A program made the position numbers and the translations under genes. A stretch of 64,000 bases of DNA. Origin: Escherichia phage 4MG. The notes below the pieces were generated by a model, which was given only the letters and a program-made list of their open reading frames with translations, was not told where the DNA came from and did not search any database. Within the stretch, counting starts at the first letter, position 1; each line of letters begins with the position of its first letter. The stretch is taken from the sequence record NC_022968.1; one strand, given 5' to 3'. Of the stretch, positions 2,032-56,429 are shown piece by piece.

Positions 2032-2107
2032 TGGTGGGGCATGAAGGATTCGAACCTTCGACCTTCGGCTTAAGAGGCCGCTACTCTAACCGCTGAGTTA
2101 ATACCCC
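2032..2107 (-). tRNA. tRNA-Lys (anticodon CUU)
   Basis: Hand-folded 76-nt cloverleaf: acceptor GGGGUAU/AUGCCCC, D-stem ACUC/GAGU, anticodon loop CUCUUAA, T-arm GAAGG-UUCGAAU-CCUUC, encoded CCA. Confidence 0.8.
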
Positions 2108-2801: not shown

Positions 2802-2878
2802 TGGTAGTTCTGGCAGGGATTGAACCTGCGACCTCTTCCTTATGAGGGAAGCGCTCTAACCAACTAAGCTACAGAACC
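2802..2878 (-). tRNA. tRNA-Met (anticodon CAU; elongator Met or lysidine-type Ile2 cannot be distinguished)
   Basis: Hand-folded 77-nt cloverleaf: acceptor GGUUCUG/CAGAACU (G1-U72 wobble), D-stem GCUU/GAGC, anticodon stem CUUCC/GGAAG with loop CUCAUAA, T-arm GCAGG-UUCAAUC-CCUGC, encoded CCA. Confidence 0.8.
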
Positions 2879-16756: not shown

Positions 16757-17639
16757 GAATATCAAACGTGTGATTTTTGCTGGCCTGATCGCTCTGGGTG
16801 CCGTTGGCCTGACTGGTTGTGAACGTGCAACTGTCCCGGCAGGTTATGTGGGTGTGAAGGTTGACCTGTATGGCGACGAAAAGGGTGTTCAGCAGCAGGA
16901 AGTGGGTGTTGGTAAATACTGGCTGACCTGGAACGAAGAAATCTATCAGTTCCCTACATTCAACCAGTTAAACAACTACGACCAACCGTTTAACTTCCAG
17001 ACCAAGGATTCTATGACGGTCTCTGCGAAGGTTGGTGTTGAGTATTACGTTGACCGCTCCAAGGTCACCAAGATCTTCCAGACCTACCGTAAAGGTGTTC
17101 AGGAAATCACTGATGTCAACATTCGTCAGAACATCTCTGATGCACTGATCAAAGAAGCGGGTACGATGGATATCGGTACGCTGGCTGGCGATGGTAAATC
17201 TCAGCTTCTGGATCGTGTGACGAAGACCCTGAAAGCGAAGCTTGACCCGATTGGTATCGTGATCGTGAAACTGTCTTACACTGATGATCTGCGTTATCCA
17301 CCACAGGTAACCGCATCCATCAACGCGAAGATCGAAGCGACTCAGAAAGCGCTGCTGCGTGAAAACGAAATCCAGCAGACCAAAGCTGAAGCTCAGAAAC
17401 AGATCGAAGCCGCTCGCGGTGAAGCTGAATCTAAGCGACTGCAAGCTCAGGGTGAGGCAGATGCTAAAGTAGCACTGGCAAAAGGTGAAGCAGAATCCAT
17501 CCAACTGCGTGGTGATTCTCTCCGCAAAAACCCAGAAATTATGCAACTGGAAGCGATCAACAAGTGGAACGGTGTGACCCCGGTCTATATGACCAGCGGT
17601 TCTCAGACCCCATTCGTTACCCTGCCAGCAGGTAAATAA
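16749..17639 (+). CDS. SPFH (band-7/prohibitin-like) domain lipoprotein
   Basis: 296 aa; lipobox LTGC after hydrophobic signal; SPFH-like core followed by long Ala/Glu/Gln coiled coil. Confidence 0.7.
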   Translation: MLKNIKRVIFAGLIALGAVGLTGCERATVPAGYVGVKVDLYGDEKGVQQQEVGVGKYWLTWNEEIYQFPTFNQLNNYDQPFNFQTKDSMTVSAKVGVEYYVDRSKVTKIFQTYRKGVQEITDVNIRQNISDALIKEAGTMDIGTLAGDGKSQLLDRVTKTLKAKLDPIGIVIVKLSYTDDLRYPPQVTASINAKIEATQKALLRENEIQQTKAEAQKQIEAARGEAESKRLQAQGEADAKVALAKGEAESIQLRGDSLRKNPEIMQLEAINKWNGVTPVYMTSGSQTPFVTLPAGK

Positions 17640-17702
17640 GAGTTGACAAAAGGCCCGGTGATAGATTATCATCGGGTCTCAACTTAACAAAGGAGATACA
17701 AA

Positions 17703-18862: not shown

Positions 18863-19984
18863 GTGGGATATCCGTATGATAAAGATTGGAAAAATAAAGT
18901 CACGAATGACTGTGTGATCGCTTTAGACCTTGACCAGACTTGCTTTGTGTCTGCTGCTGGCGCTGAGAAGCGCACAATTAAGGCAACACACATCGCCTCT
19001 GGCAGGGAAAAGATCTTCAAAAACAGAACAGAATTCTGGGGTTCCACCAAAAGGGTGGTGGGCGGTTGGCTAAAAGACCAAAACGCCAATATGGAAATTA
19101 AGGCAAAATCCGAGGGTCGTGAATTCACACCTTGGGGACGCGATGACTTCCTGATTGAGGATATTCAGACTCCGGAACCTGTTGAAAACTGTCTGCACAT
19201 CCTGAAAACAAAGATCAACGCGATCTTTGAGCACTTAGAGATGGACAGCCAGTATGGTATGGGCGTGTTGGGTGGGGAAAATAACTTCCGTCTACTACTG
19301 CCTGCACCAGAACGCTATAAGGGTAACCGTGAGGACACCCTACGTCCTAAACTGTTACAGGAAACGCGTGATTACGTCAAGAAGAAGTACAAGGCAAAGG
19401 TAATTGACGGAGTAGAGGCAGATGATTATCTTTCTGTCCTGATGAATACCGGGTGGGAGTTCTACCAGGCGACTGGCAAGTTCAACTACATGGTTGCATC
19501 CTTCGACAAAGACCAGAAAGGAACGCCGGGGCTTCTGTTCGACACCATGCGGGACAGTGAAGAGAGATCATGGAAACATCCTATCCCTATGGTCATTGAT
19601 GACTCTATGGGTGAGATTTGGATGGAAGGTAATAAGGTTAAGGGTTGGGGACGTAAGTTCTTCGGCTACCAGATGCTCTGTGGCGATAGCTCAGATAACA
19701 TCAAGCCTTATCAGTGCTTTGACATCTCCGGACGATTTGGTGATACCGCCGCATTCAACCTAATCGGTCATTTACAGACTGAAAAGGATATGTGGACAGC
19801 TATTGTTGACCAGTATAAGACCTGGTTCCCTCAGGGTGTGGAGTTTACATCGTGGGATGGAACACAGCGTAAAATGAGTGCTGGTCAGTGGGCTTCGATC
19901 ATCTTCCAGATGGTATACATGAAGCGCACAGCCAACGATCCAACAACTCTGGCAACAGAACTGCGTCGTGTGGGGGTTTTATGA
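18863..19984 (+). CDS. 5'-3' exonuclease / flap endonuclease (RNase H-like)
   Basis: About 373 aa; N-terminal CVIALDLDQT, catalytic GVEADDYLSVL and helix-3-turn-helix CGDSSDNIKP motifs; GTG start after GAGAGGG SD. Confidence 0.8.
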   Translation: MGYPYDKDWKNKVTNDCVIALDLDQTCFVSAAGAEKRTIKATHIASGREKIFKNRTEFWGSTKRVVGGWLKDQNANMEIKAKSEGREFTPWGRDDFLIEDIQTPEPVENCLHILKTKINAIFEHLEMDSQYGMGVLGGENNFRLLLPAPERYKGNREDTLRPKLLQETRDYVKKKYKAKVIDGVEADDYLSVLMNTGWEFYQATGKFNYMVASFDKDQKGTPGLLFDTMRDSEERSWKHPIPMVIDDSMGEIWMEGNKVKGWGRKFFGYQMLCGDSSDNIKPYQCFDISGRFGDTAAFNLIGHLQTEKDMWTAIVDQYKTWFPQGVEFTSWDGTQRKMSAGQWASIIFQMVYMKRTANDPTTLATELRRVGVL

Positions 19985-53378: not shown

Positions 53379-53666
53379 ATGGCTTTCCACAAGGTTGTAA
53401 AAGCGCCTGCGAAACGGGCGCATATAAAGAATTACCCACACAAGAAGTCTGAAGCGAGAGACCGAAGAGTGAAGTGGTTATGGGACTATACAAAATCACT
53501 TCTTGGGGTTATCCTCGTAAACAGCGGCTATCATAAGTTTCACTTCTACGAACAATGGAGTGCTGTGAAAAAAGAGCTTAAAGAACTCGATGCTTACGAT
53601 GAGCGAAACACCTGGCTCATTATCTCAGATGTTAAGTGGGAGCACAACAGATTTTATCGGTGGTGA
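53379..53666 (+). CDS. hypothetical basic protein (95 aa)
   Basis: Track ORF; AAGGAGAACAC SD; last gene of rightward block. Confidence 0.45.
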   Translation: MAFHKVVKAPAKRAHIKNYPHKKSEARDRRVKWLWDYTKSLLGVILVNSGYHKFHFYEQWSAVKKELKELDAYDERNTWLIISDVKWEHNRFYRW

Positions 53667-53679
53667 CCACACAAAAGGG

Positions 53680-53708
53680 TTGACGTAAACTGTCAGCCCT
53701 GTTATAGT
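53680..53708 (+). promoter_or_regulatory. sigma70-like promoter TTGACG-N17-TATAGT firing into the ORF-free island
   Basis: Hexamers read directly 14 nt after last + gene; no ORF with SD follows; coordinates +/-2. Confidence 0.45.
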
Positions 53709-54433
53709 CATTATACGCCACATCTCCTGAAGCGGGAGGATACAATCACCAGACCTGCGTGAAAGGTTGTACACCCTGTTAACATTCTGTCATGTCGATA
53801 AAACACCATTTCATAAACATATACCCCACAACATGTCGATGCTATAAACATGTCTGAAGTGACCCAGCAAATTAGCCGGGGACTAATCGCCTTGCGATAT
53901 ACCCACCCCTCCCCCGCCCGGAGGGAAACGTAAACAGGCCCCTCTCTTTGTGTTTTCTGGCACGAAAATATCCTGAAGAGGCAGGGCCTCGAAGACAGGT
54001 GTTTCTGGGCGCAATCTCTATGTCTGATGTGTTAGACGGACAATCACAGCCCCTCCGGGTTGTCAAGGATCTTTACAAAATATCTGAGAGGTCTGACCAC
54101 GAGACCCTATCGAGTTTTTGGCACGATGATTGCATGATGATTACGTGGCGCAACTAATGATTACAAGTGCAACTATTAGCAATGTGACAGTTTACACCTG
54201 TTACAGCACGATTTGCTCTTGACTTGCTTATATTTGTGTGAATGAGCCTATTTAACATAATACACGTTATGCGAACCACAGATCACCGGGAGACAGGCCA
54301 TATAGTCACATATGTTATCATTGCATCAGTGAACCATACCACAAGGCAACCAATAGCCTGCTACATGTTACCACCACGACAGTTTCACGCTGTTATTATT
54401 CATTTTGTGGGGTGTTTTGTCGATGAGAATACA

Positions 54434-54446
54434 AATGATAATCATT
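54434..54446. promoter_or_regulatory. Fur-box-like palindromic 13-mer AATGATAATCATT
   Basis: Identical to the central 13 nt of the E. coli Fur consensus GATAATGATAATCATTATC; second identical copy at 54584-54596. Confidence 0.4.
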
Positions 54447-54583
54447 CTGAATACGATTTCGATTTCAGTTTCGAAATGAAAACCATTCTCAAATGGAAAA
54501 TATTTTGTAAATCTGCCATAAAAAGCTTGACACAGAGGGAAAAATGTGTTTAGCATTTAAGCCTATCTTGAGCATCCAACCGC

Positions 54584-54596
54584 AATGATAATCATT
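54584..54596. promoter_or_regulatory. Fur-box-like palindromic 13-mer AATGATAATCATT (second copy)
   Basis: Exact repeat of 54434-54446, 150 bp away. Confidence 0.4.
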
Positions 54597-54782
54597 AACG
54601 TTAAGCCTTGCTACGCCTGGCTTTAATAGACTTTTCCTATCAATAAAAAGCTTGACAGTTTACACCTTTTCATGCTCAAGAAAACCGCTTTTCATCGGGC
54701 ATCTAGCCCGGTTTACAACATGATTAATCATGATTTGTCAATCATTAAACATGATTAAACCGCTTTTGATCTTCATAACCTG

Positions 54783-54802
54783 GCGACACAATAACACGAG
54801 GG
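54783..54802. repeat. left arm of perfect 20-bp inverted repeat GCGACACAATAACACGAGGG
   Basis: Exact reverse complement of 54976-54995; arms 173 bp apart with nested 11-bp inverted repeat. Confidence 0.7.
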
Positions 54803-54975
54803 CGATCATGCGATAGCGTGATCGGTGTTATCGTGGCGAGGTTATAAAATACTTCAACTATGCAATAGTTGCATTATGAATTATTCATTGTTCTAGTCAT
54901 CTTGTCTGTTAACGCTTAGGCGCTAACGAGCCACGATAACGCGAACGAAAACGATATTTATTATCGTTTGAGTTA

Positions 54976-54995
54976 CCCTCGTGTTATTGTGTCGC
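54976..54995. repeat. right arm of perfect 20-bp inverted repeat CCCTCGTGTTATTGTGTCGC
   Basis: Exact reverse complement of 54783-54802. Confidence 0.7.
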
Positions 54996-55131
54996 TCGCT
55001 CCGCTCGCGCCACTCACCCCGATAACGCGAACGATATTTTTATTTGACAAAAGATGATTACTATGCTCAAAAAAGACAGTTCACACAAAGGGTTAGATGA
55101 GAAAAGTTATCATTTCAGGGCTTTTGCTTCG

Positions 55132-55327
55132 TATTCACTCAATTTGCATAAAAACACGGTGTTTATTCACTTGATAACCTGCGTTATCATTTTTGGGGTG
55201 TGAGTGAGTCAAAGGCGGGTAATGATACACGATTAAACGCAATATAACGCGTTTTGAGAGGGTTTATCTGTTAGGCTTGCCGTTGTATGGCTTCAAAGAG
55301 ATCTCTTTAAATTCACTTTTTTGCATA
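55132..55327 (-). promoter_or_regulatory. regulatory cassette C: two conserved boxes (ATTCACT-N-TTGCATA type) about 179 bp apart, with AAAGAGATCTCTTT palindrome
   Basis: Boxes at about 55132-55150 and 55311-55327; paralogous to cassettes at 56538-56732 and 61218-61414. Confidence 0.5.
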
Positions 55328-55376
55328 AAGACGGGTAAAGATTTAGTGTTTTGTTTGGGGTGTTGGTATGATATGC

Positions 55377-55400
55377 AAAAAGCCGGGGATTATCCCGGCC
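55377..55400 (-). terminator. intrinsic terminator of leftward block (GCCGGGGA-UUA-UCCCGGC + UUUUU on minus strand)
   Basis: Hairpin and U-run immediately downstream of last minus gene (stop at 55420). Confidence 0.6.
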
Positions 55401-55419
55401 TTACTTGGTGTGACTTTGA

Positions 55420-55635
55420 TCAGATAAACATTGCAGCATAATGATCGTAAAGGTCTTGCGCTTGTCTGGCAGGCCAGCGGCTTTCATCCACCGGGACACG
55501 TAGATCAATCGGGCGGCGATCTTTCAATCCGTTAACATGAAAAAATGTTTCACCTGTAAGCTGTACGATCTCCAGTTTAACGAGGTTGTCAGAATCTTTT
55601 ACGGTCTGCTGAATGAGAATAGTAGTCATTTGCAA
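55420..55635 (-). CDS. hypothetical protein (71 aa)
   Basis: Track ORF; coupled to upstream gene. Confidence 0.45.
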   Translation of the reverse strand: MQMTTILIQQTVKDSDNLVKLEIVQLTGETFFHVNGLKDRRPIDLRVPVDESRWPARQAQDLYDHYAAMFI

Positions 55636-56001
55636 TTACTCCACAATTGTGATGGTTTGACCTGGTAACAGGAAATTCCCGGTTTTATCGTCAAAAATTC
55701 CGGTTGCACTTGTTACGGTGACCGTTTCGCCTGATGTCACGATCATAACTTGGGATTCAGTTGGATAATCAAAGGTGTAAAGGCGAGGTGTTAACGGCTT
55801 GCCGCTTTCTTTCGAATAGTTAACATCATAATCATAAACGGCTTGACATTTGATCGCTACCGTTTCGGCCTTGTAATAGTGGTTATCATAGCCATAGCCA
55901 CGCATAAACGGCGCGGATATTTCCAGGACTTCACACAGCGAACCACGAAACAACATATCGCCTTTTTTCAGGTCTAAAAGGTTGATTTTCTTAAGATCCA
56001 T
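55636..56001 (-). CDS. hypothetical protein (121 aa)
   Basis: Track ORF; GAGAGG SD after stem-loop. Confidence 0.45.
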   Translation of the reverse strand: MDLKKINLLDLKKGDMLFRGSLCEVLEISAPFMRGYGYDNHYYKAETVAIKCQAVYDYDVNYSKESGKPLTPRLYTFDYPTESQVMIVTSGETVTVTSATGIFDDKTGNFLLPGQTITIVE

Positions 56002-56024
56002 TTTGTTTACCTCTCAAAGTGTAA

Positions 56025-56043
56025 CGGGGCGACTAGCGCCCCC
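56025..56043 (-). repeat. intergenic GC-rich stem-loop (CGGGGCG-ACUAG-CGCCCCG)
   Basis: Lies between stop of 56052-56429 and SD of 55636-56001. Confidence 0.5.
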
Positions 56044-56051
56044 GATGATTA

Positions 56052-56429
56052 TTACTGATAAGCGGGATCGTTGGTGATGTCGATCCAATGAGTTAAATCA
56101 ATTTTGCCTTTTTCTTTCATTTTCTCGATCAGGCGGTCGGCTAATGTCTCAGAACGAACATAAACATTCTCGCTAAAATCCTGGCCTGTTTCATCGTCGA
56201 TCATTTCGCAATATTCGATTTTACCGATGAAAGCATGATTCAAGGCGTAAGTTTTACCAGTAAACCAGTTGTGTAAATGAATCTCGCATTTATAATCATC
56301 GCTACGGCCTTCAGTAGTCATAACGTCGATCAGATCACCTTTGAAAACTGAAAGATTCCACATGAGATCTTTAGTTTTACCGCCAAAATCTTTAGTTTCT
56401 ACGGTTGAAGCCAGGTTAATGATCGACAT
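56052..56429 (-). CDS. hypothetical protein (125 aa)
   Basis: Track ORF; AAGAGG SD; first gene after cassette D. Confidence 0.45.
   Translation of the reverse strand: MSIINLASTVETKDFGGKTKDLMWNLSVFKGDLIDVMTTEGRSDDYKCEIHLHNWFTGKTYALNHAFIGKIEYCEMIDDETGQDFSENVYVRSETLADRLIEKMKEKGKIDLTHWIDITNDPAYQ

Follow-up and report, generated by a model that had tools for sequence, protein, structure and literature searches.

Structures that act in cis or as RNA are known from the ends of phage genomes. The pRNA of phi29 is a structured molecule with a long end-closing helix and a multi-helix junction, and it is encoded near the left end of a linear genome. The ssi, or primosome-assembly, signals (the G4 origin, the pas of ColE1) are multi-hairpin folds of 100 to 300 nt on one DNA strand that are active only when exposed; to our knowledge, no signal of this type is known in a large virulent double-stranded DNA phage. 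At lambda cosB and SPP1 pacL-pacR, oppositely oriented or flanking boxes for the small terminase subunit lie near the cut, within approximately 100 to 250 bp, and such sites are recognized as duplex DNA, without selection for intrastrand pairing. The T7 concatemer junction has self-complementary DNA a few hundred base pairs from a short direct terminal repeat, and there the ability to pair should be all that matters.

The element described here, from the Vequintavirinae, belongs to this known general kind but is itself new and well supported. We found no description of it in the literature, and the record of phage Murica carries a "terminator" annotation under it. With T7 it shares a genome with short direct terminal repeats (packaging was classed as T7-type in KPP-1, and rV5 is annotated with a T7-like DNA polymerase) and self-complementary DNA near the repeat; if only pairing ability matters, as in T7, compensatory evolution is predicted. 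The analogy is loose, since the right end of T7, on inspection, bears just weak, imperfect repeats of 10 to 12 nt, whereas the element is perfect over 17 to 22 bp. It also encloses a conserved four-helix fold with invariant boxes, and its position is within the left end, at the opposite side of the repeat from that in T7. In common with phi29 pRNA, it has a length within approximately 120 to 210 nt, a helix closing the 5' and 3' ends, a position a few hundred base pairs from the left end, and a structure that is kept while the sequence diverges. In contrast to pRNA, it resembles no Rfam family in sequence or by covariance model, its phage is not a protein-primed podovirus but a large myovirus that has terminal repeats and a terminase, and phage FV3 lives without it. 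Like ssi and pas signals, it appears to be a strand-specific multi-hairpin fold that could be exposed by unwinding from a nearby start, but it also carries repeated boxes of the duplex type. Like cosB and pac, it is probably a cis site just inside a packaged end, with boxes that are opposed or flanking; unlike in those sites, pairing is what is conserved.

RESULTS

A perfect inverted repeat and its predicted fold

The window (the whole 64-kb stretch of DNA that was analyzed) comes from a Vequintavirinae (rV5-like) myovirus whose closest relatives are Cronobacter phage GAP31, Enterobacter phage EC152, and Escherichia phage LNA4. A scan of the entire window (12-nt seed, arms no more than 600 nt apart) returned a single inverted repeat of at least 16 nt. 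It is perfect over 20 bp, exactly as the initial annotation had it: positions 54783 to 54802 read GCGACACAATAACACGAGGG, positions 54976 to 54995 are the exact reverse complement, and 173 nt separate the two. Searched with up to three mismatches, the arm sequence matches solely at the two arm sites and not once in 100 shuffles, so the repeat is beyond chance. An 11-nt inverted repeat is nested inside (GTTATCGTGGC, 54827 to 54837; GCCACGATAAC, 54930 to 54940); the annotation had placed its first arm correctly and its second, given as about 54921, 9 nt away from where it lies. Both short hairpins that had been seen between the outer arms are present (CGATCATGCGATAGCGTGATCG, 54803 to 54824; CAACTATGCAATAGTTG, 54856 to 54872). 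The sequences outside the arms are ...AACCTG on the left and TCGCTCC... on the right, and no duplication abutting the arms was found, in agreement with the earlier observation that a target-site duplication is missing.

The 213-nt segment is strongly structured relative to shuffled sequences, with folding energies of -101.6 kcal/mol for RNA of the + strand (z, -11.0), -88.3 kcal/mol for RNA of the - strand (z, -10.5), and -60.5 kcal/mol for DNA (z, -11.5). The predicted fold is a four-way junction formed by the closing stem P1, the hairpins H1 and H3, and the invariant stem P2. Its parts are as follows.

54783 to 54802, + strand: 5' arm of P1 (outer inverted repeat), at which homology among relatives begins
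54803 to 54824, + strand: H1 hairpin, CGATCAUGC-GAUA-GCGUGAUCG, stacked directly on P1
54825 to 54837, + strand: 5' arm of P2, GTGTTATCGTGGC, invariant in sequence in 25 of 25 distinct homologues
54838 to 54929, + strand: interior of P2, variable and A+T-rich, with lineage-specific hairpins including CAACTATGCAATAGTTG; insertions are tolerated
54930 to 54942, + strand: 3' arm of P2, GCCACGATAACGC, first copy of the direct repeat CCACGATAACGCGAACGA
54944 to 54974, + strand: H3 hairpin, AAACGATA-TTTAT-TATCGTTT, and the invariant linker TTGAGTTA ahead of the 3' arm
54976 to 54995, + strand: 3' arm of P1
54989 to 55013, + strand: alternative hairpin H4, GTGTCGC (outer 7 nt of the 3' arm) with GCGCCAC, conserved loop TCGCTCCGCTC

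In the window, H1 contains two GATC sites and one internal U.G wobble; among relatives, its upper stem covaries or varies freely, with a C-G base pair replaced by U-A. P2 comprises 13 bp. The second of these is U.G in 23 sequences and C-G in 2, and the other 12 are constant. The downstream partner in H4 lies 11 nt beyond the 3' arm. Its pairing is held in three lineage states, namely, GTGTCGC/GCGCCAC, AGGTGGC/GCCACCT (Henunavirus), and ATGTCGC/GCGCCAT (Vequintavirus). Because H4 can form, two partners compete for the outer part of P1.

Conservation among relatives

The element is found at the same place in genomes of Seunavirus, Mydovirus, Henunavirus, and Vequintavirus, approximately 180 records in total. 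The first three genera contribute 62 records, in most of which detectable homology starts exactly at the left arm (window positions 54783 to 54785; query positions 24 to 26). A version of the rV5 type occurs in 118 of 120 Vequintavirus records, and homology often begins at the left arm there too. Because the adjacent genes are mosaic, flanking-gene homology could not place the region in rV5, and the gap was located from the rV5 annotation. It holds an element of the same design, with a perfect 18-bp inverted repeat (GACATAATATAAAAGCAG and CTGCTTTTATATTATGTC, 149 nt apart) and the order 5' arm, hairpin directly after it, second hairpin with GTTAC, 3' arm, and then a GC box. Scans of viral and metagenomic contigs with GCCACGATAACGCGAAC gave mostly chance 17-mer matches and a few true homologues, all of them Vequintavirinae, and a scan for the rV5 box gave one further homologue; no copies were found at other loci or in unrelated genomes in the viral and metagenome scans.

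The outer inverted repeat is perfect over 17 to 22 bp in each of approximately 30 homologues, though the sequence of the arms changes. An A-T pair of P1 has become T-A at one position in the PVP-SE1-like phages, a G-C pair has become T-A in AV124 and KNP2, and two positions near the inner end show A-T to G-C and G-C to A-T. Wholly different arms are found in the Erwinia phages pEp_SNUABM_01 and Hena1 (GCCACCTATAAAAGCAAGTAG and AGCCACCTATAAACGCTGATAG) and also in rV5. A few non-standard pairs occur at the inner end of P1, among them an A.C in VIK251, and across 25 distinct sequences there are almost no G.U intermediates in this stem despite the several changes.

RNAalifold, applied to the 25 distinct sequences, independently recovered P1, H1, P2, and H3, with compensatory changes at 12 pairs. 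A direct count on the named 48-pair structure in the same number of sequences found 98% of cells paired and two-sided changes at 10 pairs (50 cells), values reached in none of 500 shuffles; when partners were slid by 1 to 3 columns as a control, pairing fell to 22 to 48%. Within H3, compensatory changes affect five pairs. Insertions of approximately 50 nt are confined to loops, namely, the apical loop of H3 (Mydo, SalP219, and NDO71) and the interior of P2 (LNA4), and the interior has the same orientation in all of the approximately 30 homologues. The Vequintavirus homologues, when aligned, added no covariation because the element is nearly invariant within that genus.

The initial annotation had set comparison with relatives as the test of its proposal. 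The outcome is compensatory conservation and not free divergence, in that the arms differ between lineages yet stay complementary. The structure suggested from the window, single-stranded nucleic acid folded into a long stem or a large stem-loop, thereby gains strong support from relatives. From these alignments we conclude that the element, which almost all Vequintavirinae examined have kept through compensating mutations, is a functional noncoding element and not a mobile one, and that pairing, rather than arm sequence, is its conserved property.

The strand that folds

Nearly all pairs that are not Watson-Crick are G.U (G.T) when read on the + strand. The outermost pair of H3 is G.U in six sequences, and another G.U occurs in H3 of pEp_SNUABM_01. 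Of 25 homologues, 24 have a more stable RNA fold on the + strand than on the - strand, with a mean difference of 11 kcal/mol, and rV5 and EdH4 show the same preference. With moderate confidence, we take the + strand to be the folding strand; the support is held to that level because base composition could add to the stability gap. Compensatory evolution over four or five helices implies self-folding of a single strand, apparently the + strand. A cruciform is not expected to be extruded from an intact duplex when its arms are 173 bp apart, and for this reason a classical cruciform in duplex DNA is unlikely. If there is no folding in the intact duplex, the folded molecule would be either an exposed + strand of DNA (at a nick or a rightward fork) or a rightward transcript.

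A putative terminal repeat beside the element

The genes of the window run rightward over approximately 8 kb to 54.5 kb and leftward from 55.4 kb, and the element lies in the open reading frame (ORF)-poor gap between these converging blocks. The same gap measures 2.2 kb in PVP-SE1 and 2.6 kb in rV5. The following features were identified around the element.

54036 to 54552, no strand: putative direct terminal repeat (DTR) of approximately 517 bp, from boundary homology with KPP-1/KP12, Hena1, and EdH4
54527 to 54556, + strand: predicted sigma-70-like promoter match, TTGACA-N18-TAGCAT, scoring 10/12
54643 to 54690, + strand: repeated box ATAAAAAGCTTGACAGTTTACAC...CATGCTCAA with the iteron-like motif GTTTACAC, approximately 130 nt upstream of the element
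55017 to 55034, + strand: box CCCCGATAACGCGAACGA, a second direct copy that lies beyond the fold
55035 to 55075, + strand: A+T-rich stretch with the third box, TTGACA...TATGCTCAA, conserved in Seunavirus and Mydovirus relatives
55381 to 55405, - strand: intrinsic terminator hairpin GGCCGGGATAATCCCCGGC followed by TTTTT, as read from the sequence

According to three independent sources, relatives have short direct terminal repeats in this gap. KPP-1 has a 514-bp DTR at 116,316 to 116,829, determined by coverage and PhageTerm, and its packaging was classed as T7-type (PMC9862379); its element is at 117,139. The KP12 record begins on the same base as the KPP-1 DTR (GACGGACAG...). In the Hena1 record, an annotated 519-bp DTR starts with GACGGACAACC and ends with ...CTTGACAGGAAGATAGAAAAGTGTT/TAGCAC (slashes mark boundaries), and the left arm lies 260 nt further in. 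EdH4 and HdK5 have terminal redundancies of 458 bp (Korf et al.; PMC6563267); the first 458 nt of the EdH4 record are repeated at its right end, and the left arm starts at nt 659. Both boundary sequences of the mapped relatives align to the window, the outer one as tgtgtta/GACGGACAAT at 54036 and the inner one as ...GCTTGACACAGAGGGAAAAATGTGTT/TAGCAT at 54552/54553, and on this basis we infer a DTR of approximately 517 bp at 54036 to 54552 for the window phage. The element would then lie approximately 230 bp inside the DTR and approximately 750 bp from the physical left end. It is 200 to 310 nt inside the DTR in all four genera (the relatives' DTRs measure 458 to 519 bp), and several other records start 600 to 1,170 nt to the left of the element. 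Conflicting reports exist: PhageTerm called one rV5-like phage circularly permuted (PMC8407724), and the PVP-SE1 genome was reported to combine terminal redundancy with circular permutation (Santos 2011, as cited in PMC3475682). The inner DTR boundary, TGTGTT/, resembles the outer end of the 3' arm, TGTGTC/, a likeness too short to weigh. An origin of replication and a packaging site had both been listed as candidates for the repeat; each is plausible, and the proximity of the element to the putative DTR, approximately 230 bp, makes them more pointed.

The promoter-like match straddles the inner DTR boundary, which falls between spacer and -10, and points to the element, approximately 230 nt downstream. 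Its -35 is kept in KPP-1 and Hena1, with weaker -10 sequences (TAGCAA and TAGCAC, respectively); the remaining promoter-like matches have spacers of 12 to 14 nt. Between the DTR and the element, the window has boxes with TTGACAGTTTACAC, and the repeated box also precedes the element in KPP-1 and Hena1. Boxes of the GTTTACAC type are few in the window, and the corresponding stretch of rV5, EdH4, and FV3 has at least eight direct NTGTTYACR units. On the other side, the 3' arm of P1 is followed by a conserved GC box, the second direct copy of CGATAACGCGAACGA, and the A+T-rich stretch with TTGACA...TATGCTCAA; in all, CGATAACGCGAACGA is present in two direct copies and one inverted copy, with the A+T-rich stretch afterwards. 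Because P2 and a third box, outside the fold, are both invariant in sequence, recognition of DNA by a protein is suggested. Cumulative GC skew reaches its maximum at the element, which does not discriminate among readings because the gene orientation switches at the same spot.

The strong terminator hairpin at 55381 to 55405 ends the leftward gene block and forms the right edge of the noncoding terminal region. A rho-independent terminator is annotated at this site in PVP-SE1 and Mydo, and the site is conserved in all relatives aligned; the consensus terminator scan did not flag it. Since terminators close both flanking gene blocks ahead of the region, it may be little transcribed from outside. 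The element itself was considered and rejected as an intrinsic terminator: no U-tract is present, TCGCTCCGCTC follows the arm, and the consensus scan found no terminator-like site in 53500 to 56200. The interval from 54553 to 55054 contains no start of an ORF of at least 40 amino acids, and the sequence after it has no long ORF. A retron msr-msd was likewise rejected, as no reverse transcriptase gene lies downstream and no ORF of that size starts in this interval. A 25-amino-acid ORF at 55097, considered as a toxin-like peptide, is not conserved, with a stop after six codons in PVP-SE1. In two adjacent ORFs of the window and in a conserved 87-amino-acid neighbor gene of three relatives, Pfam and PHROGs searches found no DNA-binding or recombinase domain and assigned no function.

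Loss in FV3 and the insertion-free gap of Bas54

The whole element is missing from FV3, a viable Vequintavirus, so it is not strictly essential. In rV5, two 20-nt direct repeats (GCCATGCCATTCGTTTGCAT) flank 75 nt, the element, and the GC box; where rV5 carries two copies, FV3 has one copy of GCCATGACATTCGTTTGCAT, with nothing between. The direct repeats of rV5 do not abut the arms, sitting approximately 75 nt and approximately 5 nt from them, and in the window one copy is inside the fold. For these reasons, the state of FV3 is better read as a deletion between direct repeats. Among the 120 Vequintavirus records, FV3 alone is without the element, and its site reads as a deletion. In a recent transposon screen of the relative Bas54, no insertions were recovered in a gap of approximately 2 kb between opposed gene blocks, which the screen marked as important, for a cause left unexplained (bioRxiv 10.1101/2025.11.20.689424). 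This gap appears to be the region in which the element lies; the screen speaks to the gap as a whole, and the lack of insertions may mean that the transposon must be expressed, not that the region is essential.

DISCUSSION

We tentatively favor, at somewhat less than an even chance, an explanation in which a single strand of DNA folds to form the element and is put to use in replication near the end or in processing of the terminal repeat. The folded molecule would be DNA, with a role in replication or in duplication of the repeat. Rightward unwinding, synthesis, or nicking beside the terminal repeat would free the + strand; a nick or fork is needed, since arms 173 bp apart are not expected to extrude from the duplex. 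The inner helices would then draw the two arms of P1 together, and during copying of the terminal region the folded strand could act in priming, fold-back, or protein loading. The junction might itself be a fold-back primer, or the primase-helicase or terminase of the phage might be loaded there, and the invariant GCCACGATAACGCGAACGA boxes may be bound by a sequence-specific phage protein. DNA is slightly favored because the element has a fixed place beside the terminal repeat in all four genera, because iteron-like arrays and an A+T-rich stretch flank it, because the sequence boxes that make up its best-conserved parts also occur beyond the fold, and because both gene blocks are terminated ahead of the region. 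It is also favored because phages with terminal repeats must copy the repeat in concatemer processing, for which there is a precedent: according to the summary in PMC4281155, a DNA hairpin was reported during duplication of the T7 terminal repeat (Chung and Hinkle 1990). Against DNA, the conserved internal U.G of P2, the covarying helices, and the placement of insertions in loops are at least as typical of RNAs, and the promoter-like sequences upstream point into the element.

These last observations lead to a close rival that the initial annotation had not set against the DNA readings, possible though doubtful as it stands, in which the element is the core of a structured noncoding RNA transcribed rightward from terminal promoters (54527 to 54556 or the box at 54652). 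P1, as an RNase III processing stem, could release a stable RNA of approximately 200 nt, which might be an early regulatory or anti-defense RNA or a cofactor or primer in packaging or replication. Covariation, the junction of several helices, and the restriction of insertions to loops fit such an RNA, as do wobbles that fall on the + strand only, including that of P2, and the greater stability of the + strand fold (approximately 11 kcal/mol in 24 of 25 homologues). The upstream promoter-like site aims into the element, H4 suggests a conformational switch, and an intergenic locus of the related phage PhiTE yields a functional noncoding RNA (PMC3475682). The conserved wobble, the possible switch, and the viability of FV3, where an accessory RNA could readily be lost, are explained more easily by RNA than by DNA. 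However, the -10 of the best promoter degrades to TAGCAA and TAGCAC in relatives and the other matches have 12- to 14-nt spacers, the scan found no terminator after the element, P1 is nearly free of G.U intermediates, and a second, direct copy of an invariant box is found beyond the fold, an arrangement more often seen at DNA-binding sites. A search of the window against Rfam 15, a release that should cover the phage pRNA, brought only two tRNAs to gathering score and gave no match on the element at E values up to 10, and our literature search found no transcriptome or mapped origin for this subfamily. We consider it improbable that such a structured RNA encoded at the genome end acts in trans in packaging, replication priming, or defense evasion, in a logic like that of phi29 pRNA or viral decoy RNAs; it would be among the first or last products of the phage.

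Proteins that bind the duplex offer another explanation, which we regard as unlikely. The arms and the GATAAC boxes would be oppositely oriented sites for a single oligomeric protein of the phage (a regulator, for instance, or the small terminase subunit) that loops or wraps approximately 200 bp beside the cleavage site, so that the symmetry would reflect protein recognition. The element is near the putative terminase cut sites, the arms of P2 and the third box are invariant, homology blocks begin at the arm, and lambda cosB and SPP1 pac provide precedents near a cut. Yet recognition alone leaves unexplained why every variable arm position stays complementary and why H1, H3, and H4 covary in otherwise free stems, and the arms differ completely between genera while the architecture is kept. 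It is very unlikely that the element is a transcriptional insulator or RNA-processing site that halts or destabilizes rightward transcripts before they run antisense into the leftward early genes. Its position between rightward promoter-like boxes and convergent genes would suit that role, and a perfect 20-bp duplex would be a substrate of RNase III, but no U-tract follows the stem, the scan shows no terminator-like site, a further rightward promoter-like box lies downstream at 55047, and a conserved four-helix fold with invariant sequences exceeds what the role needs. A selfish or mobile origin is also a very poor fit, whether as the miniature inverted-repeat element that the initial annotation had among its candidates or as a small integrated element whose borders are the 20-nt direct repeats of rV5. 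Such an origin would account for the terminal inverted repeats, the homology breakpoints at the left arm, and the resemblance of FV3 to an empty site, with one copy of GCCATGACATTCGTTTGCAT against two flanking copies in rV5. Against it, the element is present once per genome at a fixed locus in approximately 180 related records from four genera, no target duplication abuts the arms, and the internal helices are under structural selection. Least credible of all is an invertible switch, in which a recombinase acting on the 20-bp repeats would flip the 173-bp segment. Its geometry is similar, but all of the approximately 30 homologues share one interior orientation, no recombinase domain was found in the two adjacent window ORFs or the 87-amino-acid neighbor gene of relatives, and inversion does not explain covariation in H1 and H3.

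The Vequintavirinae are widely used as therapeutic and biocontrol phages, and their gene-free gap of approximately 2 kb is now anchored to the physical ends of the genome. The element and the terminal repeat account for the breaking of several assemblies at this place. A precisely bounded element, an alternative hairpin, and invariant boxes are direct targets for mutagenesis, and for genome engineers they are a guide to the bases best left untouched. If the folded molecule is DNA, as we tentatively prefer, the element would process ends or prime synthesis with a structure more elaborate than is usual for a phage with terminal repeats. If it is RNA, it would represent a new phage RNA family, and an end-encoded RNA acting in trans, if true, would be the first of its kind in a large enterobacterial myovirus.

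Hairpin cassettes and neighboring genes

The noncoding terminal region of the relatives contains cassettes of two to three consecutive short hairpins (~30-52 nt) that are present or absent at differing points depending on the phage. One example reads GCCCGTTTACGGG-TTCAATGTGTAACATTGAA-TCGCTATGCGA. The stems covary from copy to copy, and the cassettes resemble miniature insertions that belong to one family. A search of the window for such cassettes found none.

Sites of hairpin cassettes in relatives (L numbers are our handles for their records)
Within the interior of the inner stem, P2: LNA4 (L005)
In the loop of hairpin H3: Mydo (L003), SalP219 (L012), and NDO71 (L034)
Downstream, near the position equivalent to window ~55330: L002, LNA4, L030, and L008
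Upstream of the rV5-type element: rV5 (L088), L108, and L109

Several public records are interrupted at the element itself. The end of the SalP219 GenBank record falls exactly at the left arm of the closing stem, and two oversized records, those of NINP13076 (L036) and GE_vB_MG, have a break within it. Faulty assembly caused by the inverted repeat is the probable explanation.

Most relatives encode, beside or near the terminal noncoding region, an 87-aa protein assigned to PHROGs of unknown function (phrog_17242 / phrog_11701), and its 264-nt coding sequence adjoins the gap in most of them. The window has different, unclassified small open reading frames at this place.

Genes and open reading frames
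L004 3619-3882, rV5 19185-19448, L110 637-900: gene for the 87-aa protein
Window 55420-55635 and 55636-56001: small open reading frames
Window 2032-2107, minus strand: tRNA-Lys (CTT)
Window 2802-2878, minus strand: tRNA-Met (CAT)

Repeated motifs and a promoter-like sequence at the putative terminal repeat

In Vequintavirus, dense arrays (at least eight copies) of the iteron-like direct repeat NTGTTYACR occupy the stretch that separates the terminal repeat from the element. The window has only four copies, set in AAAAAGCTTGACAGTTTACAC boxes, with two of them 468 bp apart. Two identical copies of a 13-nt palindrome, AATGATAATCATT, are separated by 150 bp, one within the inferred terminal repeat and the other just outside it; they match the core of the Escherichia coli Fur-box consensus. 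Another motif, CCTGAAGAG, recurs just beyond the outer edge of the terminal repeat, with its closest copy ~60 to 75 bp from that edge in the window and rV5 alike, and is a candidate terminase recognition signal.

Repeated motifs
NTGTTYACR: window 54186, 54378, 54654, and 55075; arrays in rV5 17484-17677, EdH4 (L089) ~520-620, and FV3 (L107) ~1110-1190
AATGATAATCATT: window 54434-54446 and 54584-54596
CCTGAAGAG: window 53973 (variant at 53722); rV5 16366, 16780, 16815, and 16898; FV3, four copies

Also in the window, TCTTGAGCAT (54566-54575) pairs with ATGCTCAAGA, 96 nt further downstream (54672-54681), a pairing that is retained in KPP-1 through a compensating change. With a third sequence, ATGCTCAA, located after the element (55063-55075), this set may represent one more case of pairing over a long range in the terminal region, or one more protein site that is repeated there.

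A promoter-like sequence, TTGACA-N18-TAGCAT (window 54527-54556), straddles the inner boundary of the inferred terminal repeat. The boundary lies precisely where the 18-nt spacer meets the -10 hexamer, and the layout is the same in KPP-1 and Hena1. Because the boundary splits this sequence, the complete promoter would be present in virion DNA only on the left copy of the repeat.
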